A stretch of DNA of 64,000 bases from Clostridia bacterium (lineage in GTDB: Bacteria; Bacillota; Clostridia; RUG12999). The translations under genes were made by a program, and so were the position numbers. The notes under the pieces were generated by a model. The model was not told the origin of the DNA and did not search any database. It worked only from the letters and a program-made list of their open reading frames with translations. Below are positions 10,563 to 62,737 of the stretch, in pieces. How positions within the stretch are numbered: position 1 is the first letter of the stretch; every line of letters begins with the position of its first letter. The stretch lies in NCBI GenBank assembly GCA_045648785.1, contig JAZROP010000020.1, forward strand, positions 2,968 through 66,967, given 5' to 3'.

Positions 10563-10639
10563 GGGCGCATAGCTCAGCTGGTCAGAGTGCTTGCTTGACA
10601 TGCAAGAGGTCACAGGTTCGAGCCCTGTTGTGCCCACCA
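10563..10639 (+). tRNA. tRNA-Val (anticodon GAC), CCA encoded
   Basis: A cloverleaf folds by hand. The acceptor stem is GGGCGCA/TGTGCCC with one G-T wobble. The D-arm is AGCTCAGCTGGTCAGAGT. The anticodon stem cttgc/gcaag carries the loop ttGACat. The T-arm is GGTTCGAGCCC, the discriminator is A, and CCA follows. Confidence 0.85.
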
Positions 10640-10675
10640 CAACCTCAACTATGTGTGAACGGAGGAAAGATTGGT

Positions 10676-13285: not shown

Positions 13286-15196
13286 ATGAGTAATCAGAAC
13301 GACTTCAAACCGTATGTTCCGGCAGAAAAGATTACACCGGAGCTTACTATTACATCAATAGTAATGGGCGTAATCCTTGCTATTGTATTTGGTGCAGCGA
13401 ACGCATACCTCGGACTCAGAGTTGGTATGACCGTTTCTGCATCAATTCCTGCAGCGGTTATTTCTATGGGGGTTATTCGTGTTTTAATGCGTAAAAATTC
13501 TATCCTTGAAAGTAATATTGTTCAGACCGCAGGCTCTGCGGGTGAATCACTTGCGGCAGGTGCTATTTTCACTCTTCCTGCACTCTTTTTGTGGGCGGCT
13601 GAAGGTAAAATGGACAAGCCGGGCATTGTGGAAATTACACTTATCGCACTTTTAGGCGGACTTTTAGGCGTATTTTTCATGGTTCCTCTTCGTAATGCTC
13701 TTATTGTAAAAGAACATGGAATTCTTCCTTATCCGGAAGGTACAGCCTGTGCGGAAGTTCTTCTTGCAGGCGAAAAGGGCGGAGCAAACGCGTCTACTGT
13801 ATTTGCAGGTATGGGTTTTGCAGCTCTGTTTAAATTTATAATTGACGGTCTTAAACTTGTTTCTGGTGAGGTATCGCTCAGAGTAAAAGGTTTTGCCGGG
13901 GAAATCGGTACACAGATTTATCCTGCGGTAATGAGCGTTGGGTACATCTGCGGTGCAAGAATTGCATCTTATATGTTTGCAGGCGGCGTATTAAGCTGGA
14001 TGGTTATTATTCCTATTGTTGTACTTTTTGGTGCTGATATTACCCTTTATCCCGGATCGGTTCCCATAAGTCAGATGTTTGCTGAAGGCGGTGCAAGTGC
14101 TATCTGGAGCTCCTACATAAGATATATAGGGGCAGGCGCACTGGCGGCAGGGGGTATAATAAGTCTTGTTAAATCACTTCCGCTTATTGTTTCAACTTTC
14201 CGCGGAGCAATGAAAAGCATCACAGGCTCTAAAAATACAATAAGCAATCGTACAACACAGGACATGAATATGAAAGTTGTTATAGGAGCTATTGTGGTTC
14301 TTACACTTCTTGTATGGCTTGTTCCTGCAATTCCTGTTTCACTTGTCGGCGCAGTGATTGTTGTTGTGTTCGGTTTCTTCTTTGCAACCGTTTCTTCCAG
14401 AATGGTTGGTCTTGTAGGAAGTAGTAACAATCCTGTTTCGGGTATGGCTATAGCTACACTTCTTGTTACAACGCTTATTTTAAAACTTACTGGGGATAAC
14501 GGAGTTGCGGGTATGGCAAGTGCTATTGCAATCGGGTCTATTATCTGTATTGTTTCAGCTATCGCTGGAGATACATCTCAGGACCTTAAAACAGGTTACC
14601 TTTTAGGCGCAACGCCAAAAAAACAACAGTATGCTGAGGTTGTAGGTGTAGTTGCCGCGGCTCTTGCAATTGGTGGAACACTTTATCTGCTGGACAGTGC
14701 ATGGGGCTTTGGCGGCGATGAACTGGCTGCTCCCCAGGCAACTCTTATGAAGCTTATAATTGAGGGCGTTATGGAGGGTAACCTTCCCTGGACACTTGTA
14801 TTTATAGGTGTGTTTATTGCTATTGTGGTTGAACTTATCGGCATTCCGGTTCTTCCGTTTGCAATCGGTGTATATCTGCCTGTTCAGCTTAATGCATGTA
14901 TCATGGTTGGCGGTCTTGTTCGTCTTTCACTTGATAAACTCAAAAAACAAAAAGAAGAAAAAGATGCTATCGTAAACGACGGTATTCTTTTCTGCTCAGG
15001 CATGATTGCCGGAGAAGGTATTGTTGGTATTCTTCTTGCACTTCTTGCGGTGTTTGGTATTGACAAGATGCTTGACCTTTCGACAGTTCTTGGAATTTCA
15101 GCTCCGGTTGCAAATATTGGAGGAATTGTACTCTTTGCAATTACTATTCTGACAGTACTGAAATTCTCTATGTGGAAAAAACGCACACTTAAATGA
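13286..15196 (+). CDS. OPT-family oligopeptide transporter
   Basis: The product is a 636-aa polytopic membrane protein with the OPT-superfamily (bacterial clade) sequence pattern GSAGESLAAGAIFTLPAL...SQDLKTGYLLGATPKKQQ. Confidence 0.8.
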   Translation: MSNQNDFKPYVPAEKITPELTITSIVMGVILAIVFGAANAYLGLRVGMTVSASIPAAVISMGVIRVLMRKNSILESNIVQTAGSAGESLAAGAIFTLPALFLWAAEGKMDKPGIVEITLIALLGGLLGVFFMVPLRNALIVKEHGILPYPEGTACAEVLLAGEKGGANASTVFAGMGFAALFKFIIDGLKLVSGEVSLRVKGFAGEIGTQIYPAVMSVGYICGARIASYMFAGGVLSWMVIIPIVVLFGADITLYPGSVPISQMFAEGGASAIWSSYIRYIGAGALAAGGIISLVKSLPLIVSTFRGAMKSITGSKNTISNRTTQDMNMKVVIGAIVVLTLLVWLVPAIPVSLVGAVIVVVFGFFFATVSSRMVGLVGSSNNPVSGMAIATLLVTTLILKLTGDNGVAGMASAIAIGSIICIVSAIAGDTSQDLKTGYLLGATPKKQQYAEVVGVVAAALAIGGTLYLLDSAWGFGGDELAAPQATLMKLIIEGVMEGNLPWTLVFIGVFIAIVVELIGIPVLPFAIGVYLPVQLNACIMVGGLVRLSLDKLKKQKEEKDAIVNDGILFCSGMIAGEGIVGILLALLAVFGIDKMLDLSTVLGISAPVANIGGIVLFAITILTVLKFSMWKKRTLK

Positions 15197-15549
15197 TGAA
15201 AAAGAAAAATATTATATCTGAAAACTATCTTGAACGGGTGCCTGTCCGTGCAGACATTAAATGGTCGGTTGACGATACGGGTAAGGTTACTCTTGAGATG
15301 GAAAACAAAGGAGCTTTCAATCGGATTGCCCAAAAGCTTTTTAAAAAGCCAAAGATAAGCTATATTCATCTTGATGAGACCGGCAGTTTTGTGTGGCCGC
15401 TTATTGATGGTGAGAAAAGCATCTTGGAGTTGGGCAAGGGTGTGGAAACAAAGTTCGGTGAAAAGGCAAAACCTCTTTATGAACGGCTTGCCACATATTT
15501 CAGCATTCTCGAAAGCTATAATTTTATAAAGTTCAAACAGCCGTCCTGA
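15193..15549 (+). CDS. small bacterial PH-domain (bPH) protein, translationally coupled to the OPT gene
   Basis: The ATG overlaps the OPT stop in an ATGA arrangement. The product is 118 aa with a bPH-like beta-rich sequence. The family assignment is tentative. Confidence 0.5.
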   Translation: MMKKKNIISENYLERVPVRADIKWSVDDTGKVTLEMENKGAFNRIAQKLFKKPKISYIHLDETGSFVWPLIDGEKSILELGKGVETKFGEKAKPLYERLATYFSILESYNFIKFKQPS

Positions 15550-48000: not shown

Positions 48001-49470
48001 ATGGATAATATTTATAAGGATATTGCACAAAGGACGCAAGGAGATATATACATAGGTGTAGTAGGGCCTGTAAGAACAGGAAAATCAACATTTATAAAAA
48101 GGTTTATGGATACAAAGGTGCTACCTAATATTGACAATAGCTACAAGCGTGACAGGGCAAGGGATGAACTGCCACAAAGTGCTTCTGGAAGAACAATTAT
48201 GACCACAGAGCCAAAGTTTGTTCCAAACGAGGCGGTAAACATCAAAATTAACGACGCAGATTGCAATGTGAGAATGGTGGACTGTGTTGGATATATGGTG
48301 AGAGGTGCACTGGGCTCTGAGGAGGAAGGAGCTGCCCGTATGGTACAGACCCCTTGGGGGGATGAGCCAATGCCTTTTGATGAGGCAGCAGAAATCGGGA
48401 CTGAAAAGGTTATAAATGACCATTCCACAATAGGTATTGTTGTTACAACCGATGGAAGTATAACGGAAATTCCGAGGGAAAATTATGTTGAGGCAGAGGA
48501 AAGAGTTATAGAGGAACTGAAAAAAATAAATAAACCATTTGCAGTGCTTTTAAACTCAGTTAATCCTGACGGAACACAGGCAAAACAACTGCAGAAAAGT
48601 CTGGAGGAGAAGTATCAGGTTCCTGTTATATGTGTCTCCTGTGCACAGCTTGATGAGAATGATATTGAGTCAATTTTAACTACAGTGCTTTATGAATTTC
48701 CTCTTACTGAAATAGGAATAAATCTGCCAGGTTGGCTGGATGCACTTGAATGGTCTCATCCGCTGAAAAATAACATTTTCACCTCTGTGAGAGATACACT
48801 TACTGATGTGAGAAAAATAAGTGATGCAAAAAAGAAAATATGTCAGCTTAAAGAACTTGAGTATGCTGACGATGTAAAGACACTTAAAACCGACCTTGGC
48901 AGAGGGGTAATTAATATTGAAATATCAACTCCTGAGCCACTGTTTTATGAGGTTTTAAGTAAGACAACCGGTCTTGATATAGCGGATGATGAAAAGCTTA
49001 TGAAACTGCTTATAGAACTTAAGGAAATAAAGAAAAAATATGATAAAATTGAGTATGCATTAAAGGAAGTTGATGCAAAAGGTTACGGAATTGTCTATCC
49101 GTCGATAGACGAGCTAAGACTTGAAGAGCCGGAAATTGTAAAGCAGGGAAGCAGATATGGTGTGCGCCTCCGGGCGGCAGCTCCGTCGCTGCACCTTATA
49201 AAAGCTGAAATAGAAACAGAAGTAAGTCCCATTGTTGGTACAGAAAAACAAAGTGAGGAACTTGTCCATTCACTTGTGGATGAGTTTGAAAATGAACCAC
49301 AGAAGATATGGGAGTCAAATATTTTTGGAAAATCATTGCATGAACTTGTAAATGACGGGCTTCATACTAAGCTTTCGCGTATGCCCGACGAATCCAGGTT
49401 CAAAATTCAGGAAACCTTACAGAAGATTATAAATGAGGGCAGCGGAGGACTTATCTGCATTATATTATAA
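48001..49470 (+). CDS. spoIVA: stage IV sporulation protein A (spore coat morphogenetic ATPase)
   Basis: IYIGVVGPVRTGKSTFIKRFMD is the SpoIVA Walker A N-terminus. The product is 489 aa. Confidence 0.9.
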   Translation: MDNIYKDIAQRTQGDIYIGVVGPVRTGKSTFIKRFMDTKVLPNIDNSYKRDRARDELPQSASGRTIMTTEPKFVPNEAVNIKINDADCNVRMVDCVGYMVRGALGSEEEGAARMVQTPWGDEPMPFDEAAEIGTEKVINDHSTIGIVVTTDGSITEIPRENYVEAEERVIEELKKINKPFAVLLNSVNPDGTQAKQLQKSLEEKYQVPVICVSCAQLDENDIESILTTVLYEFPLTEIGINLPGWLDALEWSHPLKNNIFTSVRDTLTDVRKISDAKKKICQLKELEYADDVKTLKTDLGRGVINIEISTPEPLFYEVLSKTTGLDIADDEKLMKLLIELKEIKKKYDKIEYALKEVDAKGYGIVYPSIDELRLEEPEIVKQGSRYGVRLRAAAPSLHLIKAEIETEVSPIVGTEKQSEELVHSLVDEFENEPQKIWESNIFGKSLHELVNDGLHTKLSRMPDESRFKIQETLQKIINEGSGGLICIIL

Positions 49471-49473
49471 ATT

Positions 49474-49509
49474 AAAAACCCGCAGAAAAACAATTTTCTG
49501 CGGGTTTTT
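49474..49509. terminator. bidirectional intrinsic terminator (spoIVA / pur operon end)
   Basis: aaaaacccgcagaaaa-caa-ttttctgcgggttttt. Confidence 0.75.
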
Positions 49510-49512
49510 AAT

Positions 49513-52500
49513 TTATTTATAATATTTTACTGCCGAGGTGAAGATATTCATTTCATATTCGCCCTCAACATTCTTGTAAAGACCTGAGCCAATACGCTCT
49601 GAATGTCCCATTTTACCAAATACTCTGCCGTCGGGTGAAGTGATGCCTTCGATAGCATAGTCTGAGCCGTTGGGGTTAAAGCGAATATCGGATGTGGGGT
49701 TGCCGTCAAGGTCAACATACTGAGTAGCAACCTGACCATTTTCCGCTAACTTCTTAATGAGTTCTTCCGAAGCAATAAATCTGCCCTCCCCGTGAGAAAT
49801 GGGCACAGTGTAGATTTCGCCAGGCTGAGTCATAGAAAGCCAGGGAGATTTGTTTGATACAACTTTTGTGCGAACAAGTCTTGATTGGTGTCGCCCAATT
49901 ACATTATATGTAAGAGTCGGACAGTTTTCGTCAGTGTCAATGATTTCGCCAAAAGGAACAAGACCAAGCTTTATAAGTGCCTGGAAACCATTACAGATTC
50001 CACACATTAAACCGTCACGGTTTTTGAGAAGGTTGTGAACTTCTTCTTTAACGATAGCGTTGCGGAAGAAAGCTGTGATAAATTTGCCCGAACCATCAGG
50101 CTCGTCACCACCCGAGAAACCTCCCGGAATGAATATCATTTGTGCCTGCTTAACTCTTTCAGCAAAGTATTTTACAGAATTGTCAATACCTGCTGCAGAA
50201 AGGTTGTTGATAACAATAATTTCAGCTTCACCGCCAGCTCTTTCAACTGCCTTTGCCGAATCGTATTCGCAGTTTGTACCCGGGAATACAGGGATAAGTA
50301 CTTTAGGTGTAGCCACTTTTATGGTTGAAACTTGTTTTCCATACGCAGGCTTTGTTAGGTCAGGGATATTTTCCTTGCCGCCCGCTACATTATTGCAGGT
50401 GAAGACTGGTTCAAGCTTGTCTTCATAAATTTTGAGAAGTTCAGCAAGACAGAGGTTTTCTCCGCCCAGGCTAATAGCCGCTTTTTCGGTTGTTTTACCG
50501 AGCAGTGTGCCAACATTTGCATCGCCTGAAAGTTCAAGGATGAACGCGCCGTAGTTATAACCGAAGATTTCTTCTTTTGTAACATCAGCAAATTCAAAAC
50601 CGATGTTGTTACCGAATGCCATCTTCATTACAGCTTCAGCTACGCCGCCAATTCCGGGGGTGTAAGCCGATTTAACCTTGCCTTCGCGAACAAGTTTTGC
50701 AACTGTGTCATAAAGTGCCATTTCCGAATCTGCCACTGGCAGACCGTTTTTGTCATATTCGGGTTTAAGTAAAACTACATTATTTCCTGCCGACTTAAAT
50801 TCTGGGGAGATAATGTTCTTTGTTTTATCTGTTGTAACTGCAAAGGAAACGAGTGTGGGGGGAACATCAATGTTCTCAAAAGAGCCACTCATGGAGTCTT
50901 TGCCGCCGATTGCTGCGATAGAGTAATCCATTTGTGCACAAAAAGCACCAAGGAGAGCTGAAAGCGGTTTACCCCAGCGTTTGCCGTCTTTAAGCGGTTT
51001 TTCAAAATATTCCTGGAAAGTCAGGTAAACATCATTAAAATCCGCACCGGTTGCAATCAGCTTGGAAACAGATTCAACAACTGCAAGATATGCACTGTGA
51101 TAAGGGCTTTTTTCAGCAATAAACGGGTTATAACCCCAAGCCATAAGTGAACAGGTATCTGTGTCACCTTTTTCAAGGGAAACCTTGTTAACCATTGCCT
51201 GAGAGGGGGTAAGCTGATATTTACCACCGAAAGGCATGAGCACAGAGCCTGCTCCGATTGTGGAGTCAAAACGCTCGGAAAGTCCGCGTTTTGAACAGAT
51301 GTTAAGGTCGGATGCAAGTGCTTTCATTCCGTCTGTGAATGAATCAGGGATTTCCTTTGCAAATGACTCAGGAACAGCAGGAGCAATGTCAATATGCTTT
51401 TCAGCACCATTGGAATTTAAAAATTCTCTTGAAATGTTACAGATAGCCTTGCCGTTCCAGTTCATAACAAGACGAGGCTCTGCAGTAACTTTTGCAACGA
51501 TTGTTGCTTCAAGGTTTTCACTGTTTGCAAGCTCTATAAATCTTTCGGCATCCTCGGGAGCAACGGCAACAGCCATTCTTTCCTGAGATTCACTTATAGC
51601 AAGTTCTGTGCCGTCAAGACCGTCATATTTTTTGGGAACTGCATTAAGGTTTATTTCAAGACCGTCAGCAAGCTCGCCGATAGCAACGGACACACCGCCG
51701 GCACCGAAGTCGTTACAGCGTTTTATAAGCTGAGAAGCTTCTTTGTTGCGGAAAAGTCTCTGGAGCTTTCTTTCTTCGGGAGCATTACCTTTTTGAACTT
51801 CTGCACCGCAGGACTCAAGAGATTCGAGTGTGTGGGATTTTGAAGAACCTGTTGCACCGCCGCAGCCGTCACGGCCTGTTCTGCCGCCAAGGAGAATAAT
51901 AACATCTCCGGGAGCAGGTCTTTCTCTGCGAACATTTTCTTGAGGAGCTGCACCTACAACCGCACCAATTTCCATTCTCTTTGCAACATATCCGTCGTGG
52001 TAAATTTCATCTACCTGACCGGTTGCAAGACCAATCTGGTTACCATAAGAACTGTAGCCTGCCGCCGCAGTTGTAACAATTTTTCTCTGGGGAAGTTTAC
52101 CGGGGATTGTTTCTTCAAGCGGCTTTAAGGGGTCTGCCGCGCCCGTTACACGCATAGCACCATATACATAGCTTCTGCCTGAAAGCGGGTCACGGATTGC
52201 ACCGCCGATACAAGTAGCCGCACCACCAAAAGGCTCAATTTCTGTGGGGTGGTTATGAGTTTCGTTTTTGAAAAGCAGCAGCCAATCCTGATCATCGCCA
52301 TCTACATTGACGGTCATTTTAACTGTGCAGGCATTGATTTCTTCAGATTCGTCAAGCTTATCAAGCTTGCCTGTTTTTTTCAGATATTTTGCGGCAATTG
52401 TACCAATATCCATAAGATTTATGGGTTTTGTTCTGCCAATATCCTGACGGGTTTTAATATATCTGTCATATGCGTTTTGAAGAAGCTTATCTTCAAATTT

Positions 52501-53205
52501 AACGCTGTCGATGGTTGTTAAAAATGTTGTGTGACGGCAATGATCCGACCAGTATGTATCAATCATACGAATTTCAGTGATTGTGGGATTACGGTTTTCA
52601 GAAATAAAATACTGCTGGCAGAATTTTATATCGTCAAGATCCATTGCAAGTCCTAAAGTTTTAACAAAATCTGCAAGCTCCTTTTCGTCAAGAGAGGTAA
52701 AGCCGTCAAGTGTTTCAACTGATTCGGGAATTTCATAGCTTGCTTTAAGTGTTGAGAAAGTTTCGAGGGTTGCTTCTCTGCTTTCCACAGGGTTAATAAC
52801 ATATTTTTTTATAGCATCAACATCTTTGGAGGAGAGATTTCCGCTTAAAACAAAAACCTTTGCGGTGCGAACAGTAGGTCTGTCACCACAGGAAATAATC
52901 TGAATACACTGCGAAGCAGAGTCTGCTCTCTGGTCAAACTGACCGGGGAGATATTCTGTTGCAAACACCACTGCTCCGTCCACACTGGGCATTTCTGTTG
53001 AAATAATGTCAAGCTGAGGCTCAGAGAAAACAGCTGTGCAAGCATAATCAAACAAATCTTTTTCAATGTTTTCAACATCATATCTGTTAATTATGCGCAA
53101 GTCGGTCAGTTCTTTTATTCCAAGCAGGGACACAATATCATTTTTTAAAGCTCTTGCTTCGTGAGCAAGCTCTTTTTTCTTTTCTACATAAATTCTATAT
53201 ACCAT
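49513..53205 (-). CDS. purL: phosphoribosylformylglycinamidine synthase, large single-chain form (PurL with fused PurS-like and glutaminase domains)
   Basis: The likely start is MVYRIYVEKKKELA (a PurS-like N-terminus) at 53205. The product is about 1230 aa, with the FGAM synthetase core and a C-terminal class-I GATase (GICNGFQAL, SHGEGR). Confidence 0.9.
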   Translation of the reverse strand: MVYRIYVEKKKELAHEARALKNDIVSLLGIKELTDLRIINRYDVENIEKDLFDYACTAVFSEPQLDIISTEMPSVDGAVVFATEYLPGQFDQRADSASQCIQIISCGDRPTVRTAKVFVLSGNLSSKDVDAIKKYVINPVESREATLETFSTLKASYEIPESVETLDGFTSLDEKELADFVKTLGLAMDLDDIKFCQQYFISENRNPTITEIRMIDTYWSDHCRHTTFLTTIDSVKFEDKLLQNAYDRYIKTRQDIGRTKPINLMDIGTIAAKYLKKTGKLDKLDESEEINACTVKMTVNVDGDDQDWLLLFKNETHNHPTEIEPFGGAATCIGGAIRDPLSGRSYVYGAMRVTGAADPLKPLEETIPGKLPQRKIVTTAAAGYSSYGNQIGLATGQVDEIYHDGYVAKRMEIGAVVGAAPQENVRRERPAPGDVIILLGGRTGRDGCGGATGSSKSHTLESLESCGAEVQKGNAPEERKLQRLFRNKEASQLIKRCNDFGAGGVSVAIGELADGLEINLNAVPKKYDGLDGTELAISESQERMAVAVAPEDAERFIELANSENLEATIVAKVTAEPRLVMNWNGKAICNISREFLNSNGAEKHIDIAPAVPESFAKEIPDSFTDGMKALASDLNICSKRGLSERFDSTIGAGSVLMPFGGKYQLTPSQAMVNKVSLEKGDTDTCSLMAWGYNPFIAEKSPYHSAYLAVVESVSKLIATGADFNDVYLTFQEYFEKPLKDGKRWGKPLSALLGAFCAQMDYSIAAIGGKDSMSGSFENIDVPPTLVSFAVTTDKTKNIISPEFKSAGNNVVLLKPEYDKNGLPVADSEMALYDTVAKLVREGKVKSAYTPGIGGVAEAVMKMAFGNNIGFEFADVTKEEIFGYNYGAFILELSGDANVGTLLGKTTEKAAISLGGENLCLAELLKIYEDKLEPVFTCNNVAGGKENIPDLTKPAYGKQVSTIKVATPKVLIPVFPGTNCEYDSAKAVERAGGEAEIIVINNLSAAGIDNSVKYFAERVKQAQMIFIPGGFSGGDEPDGSGKFITAFFRNAIVKEEVHNLLKNRDGLMCGICNGFQALIKLGLVPFGEIIDTDENCPTLTYNVIGRHQSRLVRTKVVSNKSPWLSMTQPGEIYTVPISHGEGRFIASEELIKKLAENGQVATQYVDLDGNPTSDIRFNPNGSDYAIEGITSPDGRVFGKMGHSERIGSGLYKNVEGEYEMNIFTSAVKYYK

Positions 53206-53209
53206 AATC

Positions 53210-54475
53210 TTATCCTTTCGCCTTAAGCGCTTTTTGACCAATGTCTTTCCGATAGAATGCATTTTCAAAGGAAACTTTTTTTACTTCGTCATAAGCCTTT
53301 TCTATAGCTTTTTCAAGGCTTTCGGCAGTAGCTGTTACACCTAAAACTCTGCCGCCGCCCGAAAGTAGCTTTTCGCCATCAAGCTTTGCGCCTGCAACAT
53401 AAATTTCCGCCTCTGTTTCGGTGGGGAGAGTAATTTCGTAGCCTGTTTCGTACTTTCCGGGATAGCCGTTTGATGCCATGATGACACAACAAGCAGCACC
53501 GGATGAAAACTCAACCTTTGTATCTGCAAGGGTTTCGTTTTCAACTGCTTTCATAACCTCAAACAGGTCGGACTTTAAGAGTGGGAGAACAACCTGAGTT
53601 TCAGGGTCACCAAAACGACAGTTGTATTCAATAACCTTAGGACCGTTTGGGGTGAGCATAAGTCCGAAGTAGAGGCAGCCTTTAAAGGTTCTGCCCTCGG
53701 CGTTCATTGCGTTGATTGTAGGAAGAAAAATCTTTTCCATACATTCATTTGCAATAGCGTCGGTGTAATAGGGGTTGGGAGCAACCGTTCCCATGCCACC
53801 AGTGTTGAGTCCTTCGTCATTATCAAGTGCGCGTTTGTGGTCCATTGAGGAAATCATAGGAACAACAGTTTTACCGTCAGTAAACGATAAAACAGAAACC
53901 TCGGGACCTGTCAAAAATTCTTCTATAACGATTCTCGAACCGCTTTCACCAAAAACCTTGTCCTCCATCATGGATATAACCGCTGATTTGGCATCTTCTC
54001 TTGTTTCGGCAATGATAACGCCTTTGCCCAGCGCAAGTCCATCAGCTTTGATGACTGTGGGGATGGGTGCTGTTTCTAGATAAGAAAGAGCTTCGTTTTT
54101 ATCAGTAAAAATCTGATACTCTGCGGTAGGAATACCATATTTTTTCATAAGATTTTTTGAAAAAACCTTACTGCCTTCAATCTCAGCTGCCGCTTTTGAT
54201 GGACCAAAACAGGGGATACCTATTTCGCGTAGCCTGTCTGTTGCACCAAGAACAAGCGGGTCATCGGGAGCAACAACCGCAAATTTAATATCATTGTTTT
54301 TCGCAAAATCTACAATTCCGTCAATATCTTTTGCACCGATGCCGGTACAAATGGCGTCGGCGGCTATACCGCCGTTGCCAGGAAGAGCGTAAATTTCTGT
54401 AATTTCAGAACTTTTTTTAAGTGATTTTATAATAGCATGCTCGCGACCGCCGCCGCCCACAACCATTATTTTCAT
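53210..54475 (-). CDS. purD: phosphoribosylamine-glycine ligase
   Basis: The internal start MKIMVVGGGGREHAI follows a GGAGGAAT RBS. The ATP-grasp fold is present. Confidence 0.9.
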   Translation of the reverse strand: MKIMVVGGGGREHAIIKSLKKSSEITEIYALPGNGGIAADAICTGIGAKDIDGIVDFAKNNDIKFAVVAPDDPLVLGATDRLREIGIPCFGPSKAAAEIEGSKVFSKNLMKKYGIPTAEYQIFTDKNEALSYLETAPIPTVIKADGLALGKGVIIAETREDAKSAVISMMEDKVFGESGSRIVIEEFLTGPEVSVLSFTDGKTVVPMISSMDHKRALDNDEGLNTGGMGTVAPNPYYTDAIANECMEKIFLPTINAMNAEGRTFKGCLYFGLMLTPNGPKVIEYNCRFGDPETQVVLPLLKSDLFEVMKAVENETLADTKVEFSSGAACCVIMASNGYPGKYETGYEITLPTETEAEIYVAGAKLDGEKLLSGGGRVLGVTATAESLEKAIEKAYDEVKKVSFENAFYRKDIGQKALKAKG

Positions 54476-54491
54476 AGGTAATTCCTCCTGA

Positions 54492-55733
54492 TTATTCGTA
54501 GATGGGGAACTTTTCGCAAAGCTCAATTACTTCTTTTGTAACCTGGTCTTTTGTAGCTTCAAAATCGGAAGCAACCAGCTTAATCCAATGAGCAATTTTC
54601 TTCATTTCTTCTTCCTTGAAACCACGGGAAGTAACCGCAGGAGTACCTATACGGACACCACTTGTTACGAATGGGCTTTCGGGGTCATTGGGAATTGTAT
54701 TTTTGTTTGCTGTAATATGAACTTCATCAAGACGATGTTCCATTTCTTTGCCTGTGATGCCAAAAGGACGAAGGTCAAGAAGCATCAGATGATTGTCTGT
54801 GCCACCGGATACAATATCGAATCCTTCTCTAATAAATTCCTCGGATAAAACTTTAGCATTTTTAATAATCTGTTTCTGATATTCTTTGAATTCGTCAGTT
54901 AATGCTTCGCCGAAAGCAACTGCTTTAGCGGCAATAATATGCATAAGAGGTCCGCCTTGAATTCCGGGGAATATAGCTTTGTCAATCTGTTTTGCATATT
55001 CTTCTTTACAAAGGATAAGACCACCTCTGGGACCGCGCAGAGTTTTATGAGTTGTTGTTGTTACAACATCTGCATAGGGAACAGGAGATGGATGGAGTCC
55101 TGCGGCAACAAGACCGGCAATGTGAGCAATGTCAACCATCATGATTGCGCCAACTTCGTCACAGATTTCACGAATTTTTGCAAAGTCAATAGTTCTTGCA
55201 TAAGCACTTGCGCCCGAGACAATCATTTTGGGTTTACATTCAAGTGCGATTTCACGCATTTTATCATAGTCAATTCTGCCTGTTTCATCATCAACGCCGT
55301 AAGGAACGATGTTGAAATATTTACCTGAAATATTGACAGGGCTGCCGTGAGAAAGGTGACCACCGTGAGCGAGATTCATACCCATAACGGTATCGCCCGG
55401 CTGAAGGAAAGCAAAGAATACTGCAAGGTTAGCATTAGCACCGCTGTGAGGCTGAACATTCGCATGTTCAGCACCGAACAGCTTTTTAGCTCTTTCTCTT
55501 GCAATTTCTTCAACTTCATCAACATGGATACAACCGCCGTAATAGCGTTTGCCCGGATAGCCTTCTGCATATTTGTTTGTCAGAACACCGCCGGCAGCAA
55601 GAAGTACTGCTTCTGATACAATGTTTTCGGAAGCTATAAGTTCAATGTTATGTTTCTGACGGGAAAGTTCTCTGTCGCAAGCAGCAAAAACTTCACTGTC
55701 ATAATTTTTAAGCTGGTCAAAAAATTTACTCAT
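54492..55733 (-). CDS. glyA: serine hydroxymethyltransferase
   Basis: It has LIASENIVS and [14 protein letters not shown], the PLP-lysine region. The product is 413 aa. Confidence 0.9.
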
Positions 55734-55752
55734 TTTCTAATCTCCTTATATA

Positions 55753-56940
55753 TTAATGATGAAACAATCTCATGTGTGTGAATGCCATTGATATGCCAAG
55801 CTTGTTGCAAGCGTCAATTACAAGCTGGTCACGAATGGAGCCACCCGGCTGTGCGATGTATGTTACGCCACTTTTTGCAGCTCGTTCAATATTATCACTG
55901 AATGGGAAGAAAGCATCTGAACCTAATGCAACATCCTTAATGCTATTAAGGTAAGCATCCTTTTCTTCTTTAGTGAAAGGCTCAGGCTGAACCTTAAAGA
56001 ACTGCTGCCAGTTGCCGTCTGCCAGTACATGGTCCGCATCAAAATCGGAAATGTAAAGGTCAATACAGTTATCTCTGTCAGGTCTGCCAATTTCATCAAG
56101 GAAAGGTAGATTTAAAACTTTGTCGTGCTGACGGAGATGCCAGTTATCAGCTTTCTGTCCGGCAAGTCTTGTACAGTGAATTCGTGACTGCTGACCTGCA
56201 CCTACGCCGATTGCCTGACCGTCTGCAGCAAAGCATACAGAGTTAGACTGAGTATATTTAAGTGTGATAAGTGCAACTATAAGGTTTCTGATTGCACTTT
56301 CGGGGAGTTCTTTATTTTCTGTAACAATTTCTGTAAGCAGTTCGCGGTTTATTTCAAAATCGTTTCTGCCCTGTTCAAATGTGATTCCGAAAACCTGTTT
56401 GCGTTCAATGGGATCAGGAATATAATTTTCGTCTATTTTTACAATGTTGTATGTGCCTTTTCTTTTGCTTTTTAAAATTTCAAGAGCCTCATCTGTATAT
56501 CCGGGAGCGATAACACCATCGGAAACCTCTCTTGCAATAAGAGAAGCGGTTACCTTGTCACACTCGTCAGATAAAGCAATCCAGTCACCGAAAGAACTCA
56601 TTCTGTCAGTACCCCTTGCACGGGCATAGGCCAGAGCGAGAGGAGAAGAATCAAGGTCTGCAATATCATCAACAAAGCAGGCTTTCTTGAGTTTATCGCT
56701 CATTGGCAGGCCGAGTGCCGCGGAAGTAGGACTTACATGTTTAAATGATGTAGCACATGGAATACCGAGCGCTGCTTTTAAATCACGAACGAGTAGCCAG
56801 CTGTTAAATGCATCAAGAAAGTTGATGTATCCGGGTTTGCCATTTAAGATTTCAACCGGCAGGTCGCTTCCGTCGTGCATATAAATTCTTGAGGGTTTCT
56901 GATTGGGATTACAACCGTATTTAAGTTCAAAAGAGTTCAT
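55753..56940 (-). CDS. purH: AICAR transformylase-only PurH (no MGS-like IMP cyclohydrolase domain)
   Basis: The product is 395 aa and corresponds only to the AICARFT domain of bifunctional PurH (FKHVSPTSAALG, DAFFPFSD, IAQPGGSIRD). The N-terminal ~200-aa IMPCH/MGS domain is absent. Confidence 0.8.
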   Translation of the reverse strand: MNSFELKYGCNPNQKPSRIYMHDGSDLPVEILNGKPGYINFLDAFNSWLLVRDLKAALGIPCATSFKHVSPTSAALGLPMSDKLKKACFVDDIADLDSSPLALAYARARGTDRMSSFGDWIALSDECDKVTASLIAREVSDGVIAPGYTDEALEILKSKRKGTYNIVKIDENYIPDPIERKQVFGITFEQGRNDFEINRELLTEIVTENKELPESAIRNLIVALITLKYTQSNSVCFAADGQAIGVGAGQQSRIHCTRLAGQKADNWHLRQHDKVLNLPFLDEIGRPDRDNCIDLYISDFDADHVLADGNWQQFFKVQPEPFTKEEKDAYLNSIKDVALGSDAFFPFSDNIERAAKSGVTYIAQPGGSIRDQLVIDACNKLGISMAFTHMRLFHH

Positions 56941-57671
56941 TATCGAAGTCCTCCTTCATGTTTATTTACTATTCTTGTGTCAATTTTACCTGTTTTAAGG
57001 TTTGTGAAACGGACAAACATAGAAATTTTATTGTTTTCATCAAGAGCTTCCCAAACTTTTTTTGTAAGCTCATCAATATCGTTTGGAAGAGAAATTCTCT
57101 CGGGTTCGCCTGTGAAGGTGGGAAGAGGATTTCCATCACAGTTATAAGTATGAATAAAATGACCTACTCCTGCGATTGCTGGATAAGTAAAGGTGTATCT
57201 GCTGCAAGCTGTGCCCTCAGCGTCTGCACTTTTTAAAATATTCATTTTATAAGTAAAATCATTATTTACAAACTCAAGCATACCGCTGATTCTGGGTGTG
57301 AAGTTGGGCGCATCAGGCTCAAATTCGCGAGTATCAAGTGCCGCCTCAAAGCTTTCACCTTTAGCAAGATGGTCATAAACTGTATCAGTTTGGTCGCCGT
57401 TTGTTACGATTAGTTTGTTTTCAAATTTTCTCACAGGAGAATAAATGATAAGCGAAGGGTCAGAAACCTTGCTTTCATCAAAAGGATAAATGGTGATATC
57501 TTCACCGTTTACTTTAAAAACTCTGTTCCTTGAGTTTTCGCTTCTGCCCATGATAAAGTAGATAGCAACTGCATTTTCACCGTCGGCAGTTTTGCCAATT
57601 GCAATACCTCTGCCTGGATATGTATTGTCTTTTAACAAGTCTAAAAGACAATATGTCTGATATACATTCAT
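56940..57671 (-). CDS. purO: PurO-type (archaeal-like, PF07826) IMP cyclohydrolase
   Basis: From the internal Met (MNVYQTY...), the motifs YPGRGIAIGKT...IVTNGDQTD parallel PurO YLGRILAVGRN...VVSNGSHTD. The ATG overlaps the purN stop in an ATGA arrangement, and the stop overlaps the purH ATG. Confidence 0.7.
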   Translation of the reverse strand: MNVYQTYCLLDLLKDNTYPGRGIAIGKTADGENAVAIYFIMGRSENSRNRVFKVNGEDITIYPFDESKVSDPSLIIYSPVRKFENKLIVTNGDQTDTVYDHLAKGESFEAALDTREFEPDAPNFTPRISGMLEFVNNDFTYKMNILKSADAEGTACSRYTFTYPAIAGVGHFIHTYNCDGNPLPTFTGEPERISLPNDIDELTKKVWEALDENNKISMFVRFTNLKTGKIDTRIVNKHEGGLR

Positions 57672-58270
57672 TTTTTCTTCTCCTTTACAATCTGTTTTGA
57701 TACAAGCTCGCATGCTTTGGGTAGTATAATCCATTCAGCCTGCTGCATAACGCGTTTCTGCAAGGTTTCAGGAGTATCTTTTGGACGGATTTTAACAGCT
57801 TTTTGTGCAATGATTTTTCCTCCGTCAGGAATTTCGTTTACAAAATGAACGGTTGCACCCGTAACCTTAACGCCGTATTTAAGTGCTTCTTCATGAACTT
57901 TAAGTCCATAATACCCTTTTCCGCAGAAAGAGGGGATAAGTGCCGGATGAACATTAATGATACGATTTGCAAAACGGGAGGTAAATTTCTTGGAGAGAAT
58001 TTTCATAAATCCCGCAAGAACAATCAAATCAATTTTTTCATCTTCTAATTTTTTTATAAGTTTATCCTCAAAATCAGGAGCCTTGGACGGAATAACCGCG
58101 GTGGCAATGTCGGCATTTTTTGCACGGGTGAGAGCATAGGCTTCCGGATTGCCCGAAAGGACAAGGGAAATTTCACCGCTTTTTATAACGCCGCTTTTTT
58201 GAGCATCTATCATTGCCTGCAGATTAGTTCCTCCACCCGAAACGAGGACTGCAATTTTTGCTTTCATCAT
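57668..58270 (-). CDS. purN: phosphoribosylglycinamide formyltransferase
   Basis: [15 protein letters not shown] is the GART N-terminus, and a formyl-transferase fold follows. Confidence 0.85.
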
Positions 58271-59301
58271 ATAATAACTCCTGCATCGCCTTTAACGATT
58301 TCTCCAATGATGTAAGCGTCTTCACCTGCAGATTTAAGAATTTCGAGAGATTTTGCCGCATCCTCTGCCGAAACAACAATGCTCATGCCAACGCCCATAT
58401 TAAAGGTGTTGAACATATCGCGCTCAGGAATGTTTCCACGCTTTGCAATAAGGTCGAAAATGGGAAGGATTTTAAGGGCAGATTTATCAATCTTAGCGGA
58501 ATAGCCGTCCGGCAGACTGCGCGGAATATTTTCGTAAAAGCCTCCGCCAGTGATGTGAGAAATTGCCTTAACTCTAACTTCGTCTAAAAGTGCAAGTACA
58601 GGTTTTACATAAATTTTTGTAGGAGTGAGAAGTGTTTCTCCAATGGATTTGCCGCCAAGCTCAGCGAGAGGACTGGTGATGTCGCCATTTTCAACATCAA
58701 GCACTTTTCTTACAAGAGAAAAACCATTTGAGTGAACACCGGACGAGGGAAGTGCAATTATAACATCACCCTCTGTTACAGTGGAGTTATCTAAAATTTT
58801 ATCTTTGTCAACCACGCCCGTGGAATAACCTGCAAGGTCATATTCGTTTTCAGGATAAAATCCGGGCATTTCAGCAGTTTCACCACCGATTAAAGCTGCA
58901 CCTGCCTGAACACAGCCCTCAGCTACACCAGATACGATTGCAGCAACTCTTTCGGGACAGTTTTTACCCACTGCTATGTAGTCAAGGAAAAAGAGAGGTT
59001 TTGCACCGCTGCAGATAATATCGTTAACGCACATTGCAACGCAGTCGATACCTACGGTATCATGCTTGTCCATTTTAAATGCTATTTTAAGTTTTGTACC
59101 AACGCCGTCAGTACCGCTTACAAGAACAGGTTTATTTATTCCTTCAAGGTCAAGCTCAAACAGACCGCCAAAACCGCCTATTCCGCTTAAAACCCCGGGA
59201 GTAACAGTTCTTGCAATATGGGTTTTCATAAGCTCAACTGCTTTGTAGCCGGCAGTAATGTCAACCCCGGCATTTTTATAACTTTCGCTAAAACTTTTCA
59301 T
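58267..59301 (-). CDS. purM: phosphoribosylformylglycinamidine cyclo-ligase (AIR synthetase)
   Basis: SYKNAGVDI...GIGGFGG is the PurM signature. Confidence 0.9.
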
Positions 59302-59331
59302 GATAGATACCTTAGCCTTTCTATATTAATC

Positions 59332-60777
59332 TTATTCTTTACCATTCCAACAATAAGTGCAAAGCTGACTTTCGTCAAGACCTATTGACTTTATAATGCC
59401 TTCCAATGATTGGAATTCCAATGATGCAAATTTGAGTTTTTCGCAAATTCTTTTTCTTAAGTTTTTTCCACGCTCTGTTGCAGAGTCGCTGTATTCGCTG
59501 ATGTAATTTAGTCCATCTTCACCCTCAAGCTCTACGATAATTTGGCGAGCGATAAGCTCCATTTCGCTTGTGGCACGAGAAAAATTGAGATATTTGCAAG
59601 CATACATTATGGGAGGACATGCAGAACGCATGTGCACCGATTTTGCTCCGTTTTCATAAAGAAAATCAACAGTTCCTTTAAGTTGGGTTCCCCGAACAAT
59701 GGAATCATCAACGAAAAGAAGATTTTTATCCTGAATAAGCTCGTGTACAGGGATTTGTTTCATTCTTGCAACCTTTGTTCTTTCCTTCTGACTTGCAGGA
59801 GTAAAGCTTCTCATCCAGGTTGGAGTATATTTGATGAAAGGTCTTGCAAAAGGAATTTTGCTTTCGTTAGCATATCCGATTGCGTGGGGGGTTCCCGAAT
59901 CGGGTACGCCACCGACATAATCAACATTTTCTGCGTTGCCTACCTTTTTATCGTGCTCTGCCATAATCTGACCGTTGCGGTATCTCATTGCCTCAACATT
60001 AATGCCTTCATAACAGGAAGTGGGATAACCATAGTAGCTCCACAAAAAAGCACATATTTTCATTTTATCTCCCGGAGGATTAAGTTGAGTAACGCCATCA
60101 AGAGTTATTTCAACAATTTCACCCGGGCCGAGTTCTTTTTCTAATTCATAACCAAGCTTCTGATACGCAAACGACTCAAAAGAAACGCAGTAGCCGCTTT
60201 CTTTTTTGCCGATTAAAATAGGAAGTCTGCCAAGACGGTCTCTTGCAGCAATAAGGGTTCCGTCGTTTTTTAGTATCAGGATTGAGGCAGATCCGTCAAT
60301 AACGCTCTGTGCAAATTTAATTCCATCAACGAAGCTCGATTTCTGGTTAATAAGTGCGGCAACAAGGTCGGTGGAATTTATTTTGCCACCTGTCATTGTG
60401 CCAAAATGACCGCCGGATGAAATATATTTTTCAATCAGTTCTTCGGCATTGTTGATCATGCCGATGGTTGTAATGGCATAAATGCCAACATTTGAACGGA
60501 TTAAAAGAGGTTGCGGGTCAGTATCGCTTATACAGCCGATAGCTGATTTGCCGCGCATTTCCTCGAAAATGTGTTCAAACTTAGTTCTGAAAGGAGAGTT
60601 TTCGATGTTGTGTATATCTCTTTGCAGACCAATTTCAGGGTCATAAGCTGCCATACCGCCCCTGCGTGTACCCAGGTGAGAATGATAGTCTGTACCAAAA
60701 AAAACATCTGAAATTGCATCCTCTTTACATATTGCTCCAAAAAAGCCGCCCATAAATTTCTGTACCTTTCTGCCCAC
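59332..60777 (-). CDS. purF: amidophosphoribosyltransferase-like protein (PRTase domain intact; N-terminal glutaminase domain atypical)
   Basis: The C-terminal PRTase motifs are present (GVPDSG, LLFVDDSIVRGTQ). The N-terminal region aligns to the PurF Ntn domain (FFGTDYHSHLGTRRGGMA vs YYGLHSLQHRGQEGAGIV), but the residue aligned to the Cys1 nucleophile is Gly (MGGFFGAI vs CGVFGIWG). The alternative internal start is at 60753. Confidence 0.8.
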   Translation of the reverse strand: MGRKVQKFMGGFFGAICKEDAISDVFFGTDYHSHLGTRRGGMAAYDPEIGLQRDIHNIENSPFRTKFEHIFEEMRGKSAIGCISDTDPQPLLIRSNVGIYAITTIGMINNAEELIEKYISSGGHFGTMTGGKINSTDLVAALINQKSSFVDGIKFAQSVIDGSASILILKNDGTLIAARDRLGRLPILIGKKESGYCVSFESFAYQKLGYELEKELGPGEIVEITLDGVTQLNPPGDKMKICAFLWSYYGYPTSCYEGINVEAMRYRNGQIMAEHDKKVGNAENVDYVGGVPDSGTPHAIGYANESKIPFARPFIKYTPTWMRSFTPASQKERTKVARMKQIPVHELIQDKNLLFVDDSIVRGTQLKGTVDFLYENGAKSVHMRSACPPIMYACKYLNFSRATSEMELIARQIIVELEGEDGLNYISEYSDSATERGKNLRKRICEKLKFASLEFQSLEGIIKSIGLDESQLCTYCWNGKE

Positions 60778-60842
60778 GGTAGATTGTTTTATTAAACGAA
60801 CATACGCCTCTTGCCGCGGGCGGGCAGGGGCGTATGGTAATA

Positions 60843-61337
60843 TTAATTGTTGTATTTTTGCGAAACAGTTGAGTCTGCATCAAGAACTTTTGAAGCTGCC
60901 AATTTTCTTTGAGCATCAAGCTTTGCAGCCAGAGCTGAATCGGAAACTGAAAGAATTTGCATTGCGAGAAGTGCTGCGTTTACAGCACCATCAATTGCAA
61001 CTGTGGCAACAGGAATTCCTGATGGCATCTGAACAGTTGATAAAAGAGCATCCAGTCCGTCAAGAGTAGATGATTTAACAGGCAAACCTATAACAGGCAG
61101 CGTTGTACAAGCCGCTACCGCACCTGCAAGATGAGCCGCCTTACCTGCGGCAGCTATGATAACACCAAAATCGTTTGCTCTGGCGTTTTCTGTAAATTCG
61201 CGAACCTGCTGCGGAGTACGATGAGCCGAATATACATGAACCTCACAGGGAACTGAAAAATCTTTTAAAGTATTAATAGCTTTTTCAACAATGGGTAAGT
61301 CGCTGTCGCTACCCATGAGAATACCAACTTTTTTCAT
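60843..61337 (-). CDS. purE: phosphoribosylaminoimidazole carboxylase catalytic subunit / class-II PurE type (no purK present)
   Basis: The internal start MKKVGILMGSDSDLPIVEKA is the PurE signature. It is the first gene after the leader. Confidence 0.85.
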   Translation of the reverse strand: MKKVGILMGSDSDLPIVEKAINTLKDFSVPCEVHVYSAHRTPQQVREFTENARANDFGVIIAAAGKAAHLAGAVAACTTLPVIGLPVKSSTLDGLDALLSTVQMPSGIPVATVAIDGAVNAALLAMQILSVSDSALAAKLDAQRKLAASKVLDADSTVSQKYNN

Positions 61338-61364
61338 TTGTAAACACAACCTTTCTGAAAGATT

Positions 61365-61400
61365 AAAAAGGGCAGACCTATACTGCTATAGATCTGCCCA
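61365..61400 (-). terminator. leader intrinsic terminator (riboswitch expression platform) upstream of purE
   Basis: On the minus strand, gggcagatctatag-cag-tataggtctgccc is followed by UUUUU. The 5' arm overlaps the 3' pseudoknot strand of the aptamer. Confidence 0.6.
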
Positions 61401-61466
61401 GACGGTCGACATTTTTATATTTTTTGCTCCCCGGCAGTTACAATCTGCCAAATCCGTCAGTTGCAA
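61394..61466 (-). promoter_or_regulatory. ZTP (pfl-motif) riboswitch aptamer in the pur operon leader
   Basis: The minus-strand RNA reads uugcaa-CUGACGG-[P2 hairpin ggcag-auuguaa-cugcc]-GGGGAGCaa-(19-nt linker)-CCGUCUGGGCAG. Against the pfl consensus GACUGGCG...P2...GGGGAGCG...CCGCCUGGGCA, the pseudoknot pair GACGG/CCGUC covaries with consensus GGCG/CGCC. Confidence 0.65.
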
Positions 61467-61493
61467 AAAACAGTAAAATATTATTATAAGTAT

Positions 61494-61522
61494 AGTATAT
61501 AAGAAAAAGAGAATAATGTCAA
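61494..61522 (-). promoter_or_regulatory. sigma-A promoter of the pur operon
   Basis: On the minus strand, TTGACA, a 17-nt spacer, then TATACT, about 30 nt upstream of the aptamer. Confidence 0.5.
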
Positions 61523-61586
61523 TGTTATTTTTTCATAAAAATAGACAATATTTTATTAAATTTTACCCTAAAATTTGCTTAAAACA

Positions 61587-61615
61587 AAAAGAACCCCTGA
61601 TGAGGGGGTTCTTTT
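61587..61615 (-). terminator. intrinsic terminator after the amine-oxidase-N-domain gene
   Basis: aaaagaacccc-tgatga-ggggttctttt, read on the minus strand with the T-tract downstream. Confidence 0.65.
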
Positions 61616-61626
61616 AGGAGTCTGTT

Positions 61627-62547
61627 TTAGTCTGCATTAATGGAAAGCAGGTCGAAAATTTCTGCTGTTACATAAGTTTTGGAATCAACAATTACAGGGA
61701 AGTTTTCTTCTTTCTGACCTTCGAACATTGCTTCACCAATTTTTATTCTTACAATGTTTTTTGTTTTGCCCGCAATATCAATGCTCCAGTCAGCATCGTT
61801 CCAGTTTACTGTGTAACCGAGAGTTTCCAGAACATGTCGGAGAGGAAGTCTACGAGCGGAAGCATCGTCAAAAAGTGCAGAGTCAGCATATTCAAAGGTG
61901 TGCTCACCAACTACAACTTCATTTTCGTTTTTTACTTCTTCTGCAAGAGAAAGAACTGCAATTTTTTCAGCAGGAACATGAGCAGGGAGGCTCATACCTA
62001 CAACTGATGAAAATGCAACAATTTCAGAACCGGGAGTAATATCTGAAGCTTTCAGTGCAATTCTGATTTTGTGTGCGATTACAGGAGTTTCGTCTGTGTA
62101 AACGATTTTGTTATTACCATCTTTTGAGAAAATCTCGCCCTTTTCATTTGTATCCACAACTGCATAAATGGGAGCAGAAGAGGATTTTTCTGTATTTACA
62201 AACACATAATATGCATATGCCTGAGGGGGAAGACTTCTTGTTGTCATAGAACTTGCTACAACTGTTACAGCATCGTCTTTTTTAATTGTTTCAACAGGGT
62301 TTAAGTCGTAATCGCAGATGTAAGTATTCTCGTCCATATTGAACTGAAATTCTTTTTCGCCGATAACAATGGAGCCTTCATTTACTTCAGTTACAACACC
62401 GTTGTAAGAAATTTTTGTGTCTGCTACTTCAACTTTTTCTTCTGCTTCAGAAATGAGCATGATGTCATTTTTTACAGTTTCAGTTGCATAAGCAGCTGGG
62501 ATGAGTGCGAGCATAGCCGCGAGTGATAAAGAAATAAATTTTTTCAT
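61627..62547 (-). CDS. secreted protein with C-terminal copper-amine-oxidase-like N-terminal domain (Cu_amine_oxidN1)
   Basis: The internal start MKKFISLSLAAMLALIPAAYA is a signal peptide after a GGAGAAT RBS. The C-terminal VLETLGYTVNWNDADWSIDIAG...KTYVTAEIFDLL matches the PF07833 stalk domain common in Clostridia. Confidence 0.55.
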   Translation of the reverse strand: MKKFISLSLAAMLALIPAAYATETVKNDIMLISEAEEKVEVADTKISYNGVVTEVNEGSIVIGEKEFQFNMDENTYICDYDLNPVETIKKDDAVTVVASSMTTRSLPPQAYAYYVFVNTEKSSSAPIYAVVDTNEKGEIFSKDGNNKIVYTDETPVIAHKIRIALKASDITPGSEIVAFSSVVGMSLPAHVPAEKIAVLSLAEEVKNENEVVVGEHTFEYADSALFDDASARRLPLRHVLETLGYTVNWNDADWSIDIAGKTKNIVRIKIGEAMFEGQKEENFPVIVDSKTYVTAEIFDLLSINAD

Positions 62548-62737
62548 TTTTCTATTCTCCTTTTTTGTTTTTCTGTATGTAATACTTGCCGGAATGGCAA
62601 AAGGTTGCATGGAGTTAAAAAATTTTTTAAGTTTGACAAAGAATTTACTGTATGCTATAATTAAAAACTGGAATTACATATATTATTGTATATTTTTTGT
62701 CCGGATAAATCAAGTACTAAAAACGGAGAGTTGAGCC

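Follow-up and report, generated by a model that had tools for sequence, protein, structure and literature searches.

The leader of purE in this Clostridia genome is very probably a canonical ZMP/ZTP riboswitch that acts as a transcriptional ON switch for a nine-gene operon of de novo purine and one-carbon genes. The ligand and the direction of control are assigned by analogy with the characterised family. We compared the window, a stretch of 64,000 nucleotides, with 4227 Rfam families. Only two matches exceeded their gathering scores, one to RF01750 and one to a tRNA family. The RF01750 match scored 62.4 bits, with the gathering score at 39 (E = 9.7e-8 for the whole window; E = 6.1e-10 in a local scan of 61250-61650). 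It covers model positions 1-86 of 86 and is not truncated. An earlier reading of the sequence, here called the original prediction, had proposed a ZTP (pfl) riboswitch, and the end-to-end match bears this out. Each feature of RF01750 that can be tested computationally was found, namely score, 5' subdomain, pseudoknot, P3, linker, overlapping terminator and gene association. Sequence comparison thus supports membership of the purE leader in the ZMP/ZTP riboswitch family. A 2010 description of the pfl motif noted overlapping terminators and links to purH, fhs, pfl, glyA, folD and further steps of purine synthesis (PMC2864571). ZMP/ZTP was established as its ligand in 2015 (summarised in PMC7266159, PMC10912719). 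The parts of the leader are as follows.

61587..61615, minus strand, terminator of the upstream gene (61627-62610, minus strand), from a consensus scan
61517..61522, minus strand, -35 hexamer TTGACA, from a consensus scan
61494..61499, minus strand, -10 hexamer TATACT, from a consensus scan
61389..61474, minus strand, ZMP/ZTP riboswitch aptamer (pfl motif), full-length RF01750 match
61463..61472, minus strand, P1 5' strand UGUUUUUUGC, pairs with 61418-61427 through 10 standard pairs
61454..61458, minus strand, J1/2 pseudoknot 5' strand GACGG, pairs with 61401-61405
61433..61449, minus strand, P2 hairpin GGCAG-AUUGUAA-CUGCC, 61449-61445 pairs with 61437-61433
61428..61432, minus strand, conserved GGGGA of the CGGGGAGC segment, aligns to consensus cGgGgAgC
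61418..61427, minus strand, P1 3' strand GCAAAAAAUA, from Rfam alignment and structure evaluation
61412..61417, minus strand, variable linker UAAAAA between the 5' and 3' subdomains, about 6 nt, from Rfam alignment
61395..61411, minus strand, P3 stem-loop UGUC-GACCGUCUG-GGCA, 61411-61408 pairs with 61398-61395
61370..61399, minus strand, intrinsic terminator hairpin of 13 bp with a 4-nt loop, from consensus scan and folding
61365..61369, minus strand, U5 tract of the terminator, read from the sequence
61350..61356, minus strand, ribosome-binding site AGAAAGG, 12 nt before the purE ATG, read from the sequence

The promoter (61522..61494, minus strand) matches the consensus at 11 of 12 positions with a 17-nt spacer and lies ahead of the aptamer, where it had been predicted as TTGACA-17-TATACT. 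It is visible at the equivalent relative position in six relatives (L001, L002, L004, L015, L016 and L019). Promoter spacing would place the transcription start near 61487, about 13 nt 5' of P1. Between the -10 hexamer and P1 lies a short AU-rich stretch. The upstream gene has its own terminator at 61615..61587. Hence, the pur leader starts a separate transcription unit.

Read on the minus strand, the leader runs UGUUUUUUGC, AA, CUGACGG, AUUU, GGCAG, AUUGUAA, CUGCC, GGGGA, GCAAAAAAUA, UAAAAA, UGUC, GACCGUCUG and GGCAG. It continues with AUCUAUA, GCAG, UAUAGGUCUGCCC and UUUUU. The elements of the 5' subdomain (CUGACGG, the P2 hairpin, GGGGAGC and CCGUCUGGGCAG) were read from the sequence and placed by the Rfam alignment; CUGACGG, a GGCAG/CUGCC P2 and GGGGAGC had all been recognised in the original prediction. 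As in the family, P1 encloses P2, the conserved ACUGRCG is in J1/2 and CGGGGAGC is on the return strand. P1 is extended by two pairs, C61460-G61430 and U61459-G61431, in which the GG at 61430-61431 of GGGGA takes part. The UUGC/GCAA pairing first put forward as P1 is present, but it is only the inner end of the 10-bp helix UGUUUUUUGC/GCAAAAAAUA. The linker of about 19 nt proposed with it has to be withdrawn. Most of it belongs to the 3' strand of the longer P1, and the true linker between P1 and P3 measures about 6 nt (61417-61412). The 3' subdomain has the short P3 of the family, and its loop and 3' strand keep the conserved CCGYCUGGGCA. P3 contains four standard pairs only, one of them U-G, and its loop holds the pseudoknot 3' strand CCGUC (61401-61405). 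The consensus nucleotides of RF01750 are kept except at one pseudoknot pair, where both sides have changed, and at one P3 position, where a C-to-U change gives the U-G wobble.

The same arrangement recurs in related genomes. In the first 20 related purE loci scanned with Rfam, RF01750 ends 50-85 nt before purE in 10 and a purine riboswitch occurs in none. We built a covariance model, R1, from the window and these ten purE-linked leaders; the window aptamer scores 88.5 bits against it. R1 gave 44 matches in the window and 42 of 80 related Clostridia purE loci, all of them on the purE strand and just upstream of purE. A ZTP aptamer therefore precedes purE in about half of these loci. In the alignment of the 44 leaders, which was fitted to the model and so favours the structure, 89.9% of cells were standard pairs once the pseudoknot was added, compared with 80.0% in shuffles. 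None of 500 shuffles reached the observed pairing values, and only 33-49% of cells were paired in slid controls. Both sides had changed at 18 of 26 pairs. Covariation in the Rfam family itself makes the same point independently.

Individual helices followed this pattern among the 44 leaders. At helices 1 and 2, which cover P1, both partners had changed in 10 of 12 pairs. Helix 4, equivalent to P2, was 97.5% paired with changes on both sides at 3 of 4 pairs. For helix 5, equivalent to P3, the pair counts were G-C 40, C-G/U-G 21/19 and C-G 41. The C-G pair of the GGGGA segment was invariant in 44 of 44. For the pseudoknot, GACGG (61458-61454) with CCGUC (61405-61401), all 5 pairs were formed in 100% of cells. 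The length of the linker varies widely among relatives, up to tens of nt with hairpin inserts included. Between the window and its closest relative, L001, the differences fall in J1/2, the P2 loop and the linker, with no paired or conserved position affected.

Some relatives depart from the compact form. In five loci (L014:2820-2924, L020:2833-2940, L036:2832-2944, L044:2849-2955 and L052:2831-2934) an insertion of 25-45 nt replaces the short P2 hairpin. Two of these, L014 and L020, are not reported by Rfam at gathering and were found by the local model at 38 and 33 bits. Such extended-P2 variants of the ZTP riboswitch are probably under-annotated. An extra GC-rich hairpin is present in the linker between the two subdomains at L033:1056-1155. 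L023:2823-2901 and L024:2824-2902 appear to have such a linker hairpin as well; their matches end inside it and the 3' subdomain was not located. The match at L040:2803-2931 is split in two, one for each subdomain.

The aptamer overlaps an intrinsic terminator, GGGCAGAUCUAUA-GCAG-UAUAGGUCUGCCC followed by UUUUU (61399..61365). Folded alone, the hairpin has an energy of -22 kcal/mol (z = -5.98), and none of 200 shuffles folded as well. Its 5' arm (GGGCAG...) starts at G61399 and takes in the whole P3 3' strand (61398-61394). The pseudoknot strand is not reached. This overlap, in which the GGGCAG of the 3' strand doubles as the 5' arm of a strong terminator with a U5 tract, had been noted originally. 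An equivalent hairpin, starting from GGGCA and followed by a T-run, was found with a simple detector in at least 31 of the 44 relatives. For the full leader, folding favours the terminator state, with a minimum energy of -42.3 kcal/mol. The nested aptamer structure has -17.3 kcal/mol, to which the pseudoknot adds about -6.2. Hence, the ligand-bound state could prevail only kinetically, while the RNA is being transcribed. In neither fold is the ribosome-binding site (61356-61350) paired or sequestered, which argues that control is transcriptional. In the minimum-energy fold, P1 is lengthened by a 7-bp AU-rich helix (about 61475-61482 with about 61410-61417) in which bases of the 5' leader pair with the linker and with the first part of the P3 5' strand. 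The modelled helix would reinforce the OFF state, and may be a by-product of AU richness.

The strength of the terminator bears on whether the leader still functions. It could be a decayed or non-functional ZTP relic whose hairpin either attenuates constitutively or answers to a protein or other factor. The stem is nearly perfect, 13 bp with one wobble, and its stability far exceeds that of the aptamer. In Clostridium beijerinckii, the ON state was reduced by an invader of perfect complementarity (PMC10085676), and the pseudoknot and P3 are weaker here than in the consensus. We consider decay very unlikely. The score is well over the gathering threshold with no truncation, the changes relative to L001 spare paired and conserved positions, and the shared arrangement with compensatory changes across distant Clostridia points to selection on the fold.

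The pseudoknot carries the one conspicuous change from the consensus. As an isolated duplex it has about -6.2 kcal/mol compared with -8.3 for consensus GGCGG/CCGCC, and is predicted to be weaker. In the purE leaders of the genome set, the second pair of the pseudoknot is A-U in 37, G-C in 3 and G-U in 1. We also scanned metagenome contigs with the pattern ACTGRCGG-N(35-65)-CGACCGYCTGGGC, in which both pseudoknot positions were left free. Among the 80 loci sampled (L081-L160; 72 distinct core sequences), there were 56 A..U, 23 G..C, 1 G..U and 0 A..C. The A-U/G-C covariation is strong (Fisher p = 3.5e-19, uncorrected for relatedness; both comparison sets consist of phylogenetically related sequences, and p-values overstate their independence). 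With the 100% pairing in the 44 leaders, this covariation answers the question, raised with the original prediction, of whether homologous leaders can form the P3/pseudoknot pairing. The GACGG/CCGUC change had been described as compensatory. It is true covariation (A-U 56, G-C 23, A-C 0), but it is the majority form and not special to this locus. In the metagenome sample the A-U form precedes purE (15), a PurO-type cyclohydrolase gene (10), an AICAR formyltransferase gene (4) and glyA (1), and also pfl and fhs genes. We therefore rejected the A-U pair as a peculiarity of the window locus, since it is the majority in the 44 purE leaders. As a peculiarity of purE leaders it is ruled out by the pfl, fhs, PurO, AICAR formyltransferase and glyA leaders with the same pair.

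The A-U pair might instead mark a ZTP fold with shifted ligand specificity or sensitivity, a subtype tuned to another Z-nucleotide threshold or to a related metabolite for control of the whole pathway. It replaces G-C at the second position from the pocket end of the pseudoknot, as read by analogy with G14/G15 of Thermosinus carboxydivorans (PMC7337938) and not from a structural alignment. Furthermore, purE-linked metagenome leaders are A-U in 15 of 15 cases and PurO-linked leaders are 10 A-U and 15 G-C (Fisher p = 1e-4, phylogeny uncontrolled). However, the A-U form also stands before pfl, fhs, PurO, AICAR formyltransferase and glyA genes, the classic ZTP regulon, and the conserved consensus nucleotides of loop and junction are otherwise unchanged. 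A shift in ligand specificity or sensitivity is, in our judgement, highly unlikely.

A purine (guanine or adenine) riboswitch like the one in front of Bacillus subtilis purE would turn the operon OFF at high levels of purine bases. The location would suit the purE leader of a Firmicute (PMC10912719), and one relative, L047, has RF00167 before purE; we regard this identity as scarcely credible and ruled it out for the window, since the three-way-junction covariance model of RF00167, a search suggested with the original prediction, found no match in 61250-61650 with permissive filters at E<=10, and the leader matches RF01750 end to end instead. Rfam scans of 40 related loci gave no purine riboswitch before purE other than the L047 match (L047:409-508, 51.5 bits). 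A guanine riboswitch in this position is a trait of B. subtilis, and other Gram-positives have the same operon without it (PMC10912719). The original prediction had contrasted this leader with the guanine riboswitch taken to be typical of Firmicutes pur operons. The contrast holds against Bacillus; among Clostridia relatives, the ZTP form is usual (about 42 of 80) and the purine form is found in 1 of 40. Judged by these loci, purE in this part of the Clostridia usually has a ZTP and not a guanine riboswitch. The two leaders share a position between promoter and purE, and an intrinsic terminator as output. Their fold and ligand are unrelated, with no sequence or structure match here. In B. subtilis an end product switches expression OFF, whereas here a pathway intermediate would switch it ON.

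The canonical ZMP/ZTP riboswitch reading also accords with the genes downstream, which gene annotation places in one operon.

49513..61337, minus strand, regulated nine-gene operon purE to purL, with tight spacing or overlaps
60843-61337, minus strand, purE
59332-60777, minus strand, purF, divergent
58267-59301, minus strand, purM
57668-58270, minus strand, purN
56940-57734, minus strand, PurO-type IMP cyclohydrolase (PF07826, 264 aa)
55753-56940, minus strand, stand-alone AICAR formyltransferase (PRK07106, 395 aa)
54492-55733, minus strand, glyA
53210-54526, minus strand, purD
49513-53268, minus strand, purL, single-chain FGAM synthase

The association of RF01750 with purine and formyl-THF genes is seen here in an operon that includes AICAR formyltransferase, purN and glyA, all members of the pfl/ZTP regulon (PMC2864571, PMC7266159). 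An operon with purH, purN and glyA had been predicted; purN and glyA were found, and the purH functions are present as two genes. That division, at 55753-57734, is into a PurO-type IMP cyclohydrolase and an AICAR formyltransferase. In the metagenome sample, 25 of 80 ZTP riboswitches lie directly upstream of a PurO-type gene. The glyA gene is embedded between AICAR formyltransferase and purD. The operon has no purC, purB, purK or folD, which must be encoded elsewhere. The PurF homologue scores 171.7 against an NCBIfam purF cut-off of 350, and Pfam sees a GATase_7 domain only. Its residues 11-429 align with B. subtilis PurF (1ao0; E = 2.5e-40). Given this near-full-length alignment to a solved structure, we did not treat the low score as an anomaly, and the product of 59332-60777 is a divergent PurF lineage. 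Counts of internal promoters and terminators that might split the operon were not above shuffled expectation, with no convincing minus-strand site. Between the convergent spoIVA and purL genes is a long, perfectly palindromic, AT-flanked hairpin (49468-49515; we counted up to 20 pairs). It resembles a bidirectional terminator that both genes share and that closes the operon against spoIVA.

The closest PurE relatives are from metagenome-assembled genomes labelled Clostridia (92%) and Monoglobales (88%). Together with spoIVA and spoVAD, they indicate a spore-forming, Monoglobales-like member of the Clostridia. An identical PurE sequence turned up on just one Logan contig, of 1.1 kb. Two further loci in the window were noted. 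A lone tRNA-Val (GAC; 10563-10639, plus strand) lies between a glycosyltransferase gene and a gene for a BspA-type leucine-rich-repeat protein. The program-made reading frame of the latter (10595-11635) begins inside the tRNA. Hence, its true start must be later. At 15193-15549 (plus strand), a small reading frame, whose 118-aa product has a PqqD-like domain, begins across the stop codon of an OPT-family oligopeptide transporter gene (13286-15196), an unusual pairing.

We propose the following mechanism, in which ligand identity, ON direction and kinetic control are those of the characterised ZTP family. In the established model, P3 is displaced by an invader strand unless a ligand-stabilised pseudoknot blocks it, and the riboswitches of T. 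carboxydivorans and C. beijerinckii have been described as kinetically controlled (PMC7337938, PMC10085676). Here, the nascent RNA would fold P1 and P2, after which GACGG of J1/2 would form the pseudoknot with CCGUC in the P3 loop. With ZMP/ZTP bound, pseudoknot and P3 would be held, UAUAGGUCUGCCC could not displace P3 and no terminator would form. RNA polymerase would then read into purE and on through purL. Without ligand, UAUAGGUCUGCCC would invade the GGCAG of P3, complete the 13-bp terminator and stop transcription at the U5 tract.

ZMP is the substrate of AICAR formyltransferase and accumulates when 10-formyl-THF is short. ZMP/ZTP would thus build up when 10-formyl-THF limits this enzyme, or when flux through the pathway is high. 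Induced AICAR formyltransferase, cyclohydrolase, purN and glyA would relieve the shortage of 10-formyl-THF. The same transcript would raise purF, purD, purL, purM and purE, which act upstream of ZMP, making ZMP a feed-forward signal of flux. Most genes of the operon act upstream of ZMP in this way, so that activation by ZMP would be a positive loop; its physiological logic is presumed, which tells to some degree against the ON-switch reading. Allosteric feedback on PurF is a compatible candidate for the negative arm. A bolder extension is that, in these Clostridia, the whole purine pathway, including the committed purF step, is run mainly by a ZMP-activated positive loop and not by end-product repression, with the A-U pseudoknot subtype as a weaker version that sets a higher ZMP threshold for whole-pathway control. 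We think this extension unlikely.

Set beside the C. beijerinckii pfl and T. carboxydivorans ZTP riboswitches, the leader shares P1, P2, the pseudoknot from J1/2 to the P3 loop, the short P3, the variable linker and the conserved nucleotides. As in known ZTP riboswitches, the terminator 5' arm is the P3 3' strand, an arrangement that gives an ON switch by blocked strand displacement (PMC2864571, PMC7337938, PMC10085676), and the regulon comprises purine synthesis and 10-formyl-THF supply. It differs from known representatives in that the second pseudoknot pair is A-U and not G-C, which is a common variant, and in that one P3 pair is U-G. In addition, the terminator invades only P3 and one loop base, not the pseudoknot strand. 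Finally, the riboswitch would govern the whole purE-to-purL operon and not just purH, folD, pfl or fhs.

Class, context and architecture of the leader are all known, which makes it an ordinary example, and standard Rfam annotation would find it. For the organism, it would place nine genes of purine and one-carbon metabolism under the Z-nucleotide alarmone; beyond correct annotation this matters little. For the family, the leader could serve tuning studies as a natural expression-platform variant that combines a near-perfect invader with an A-U pseudoknot pair.
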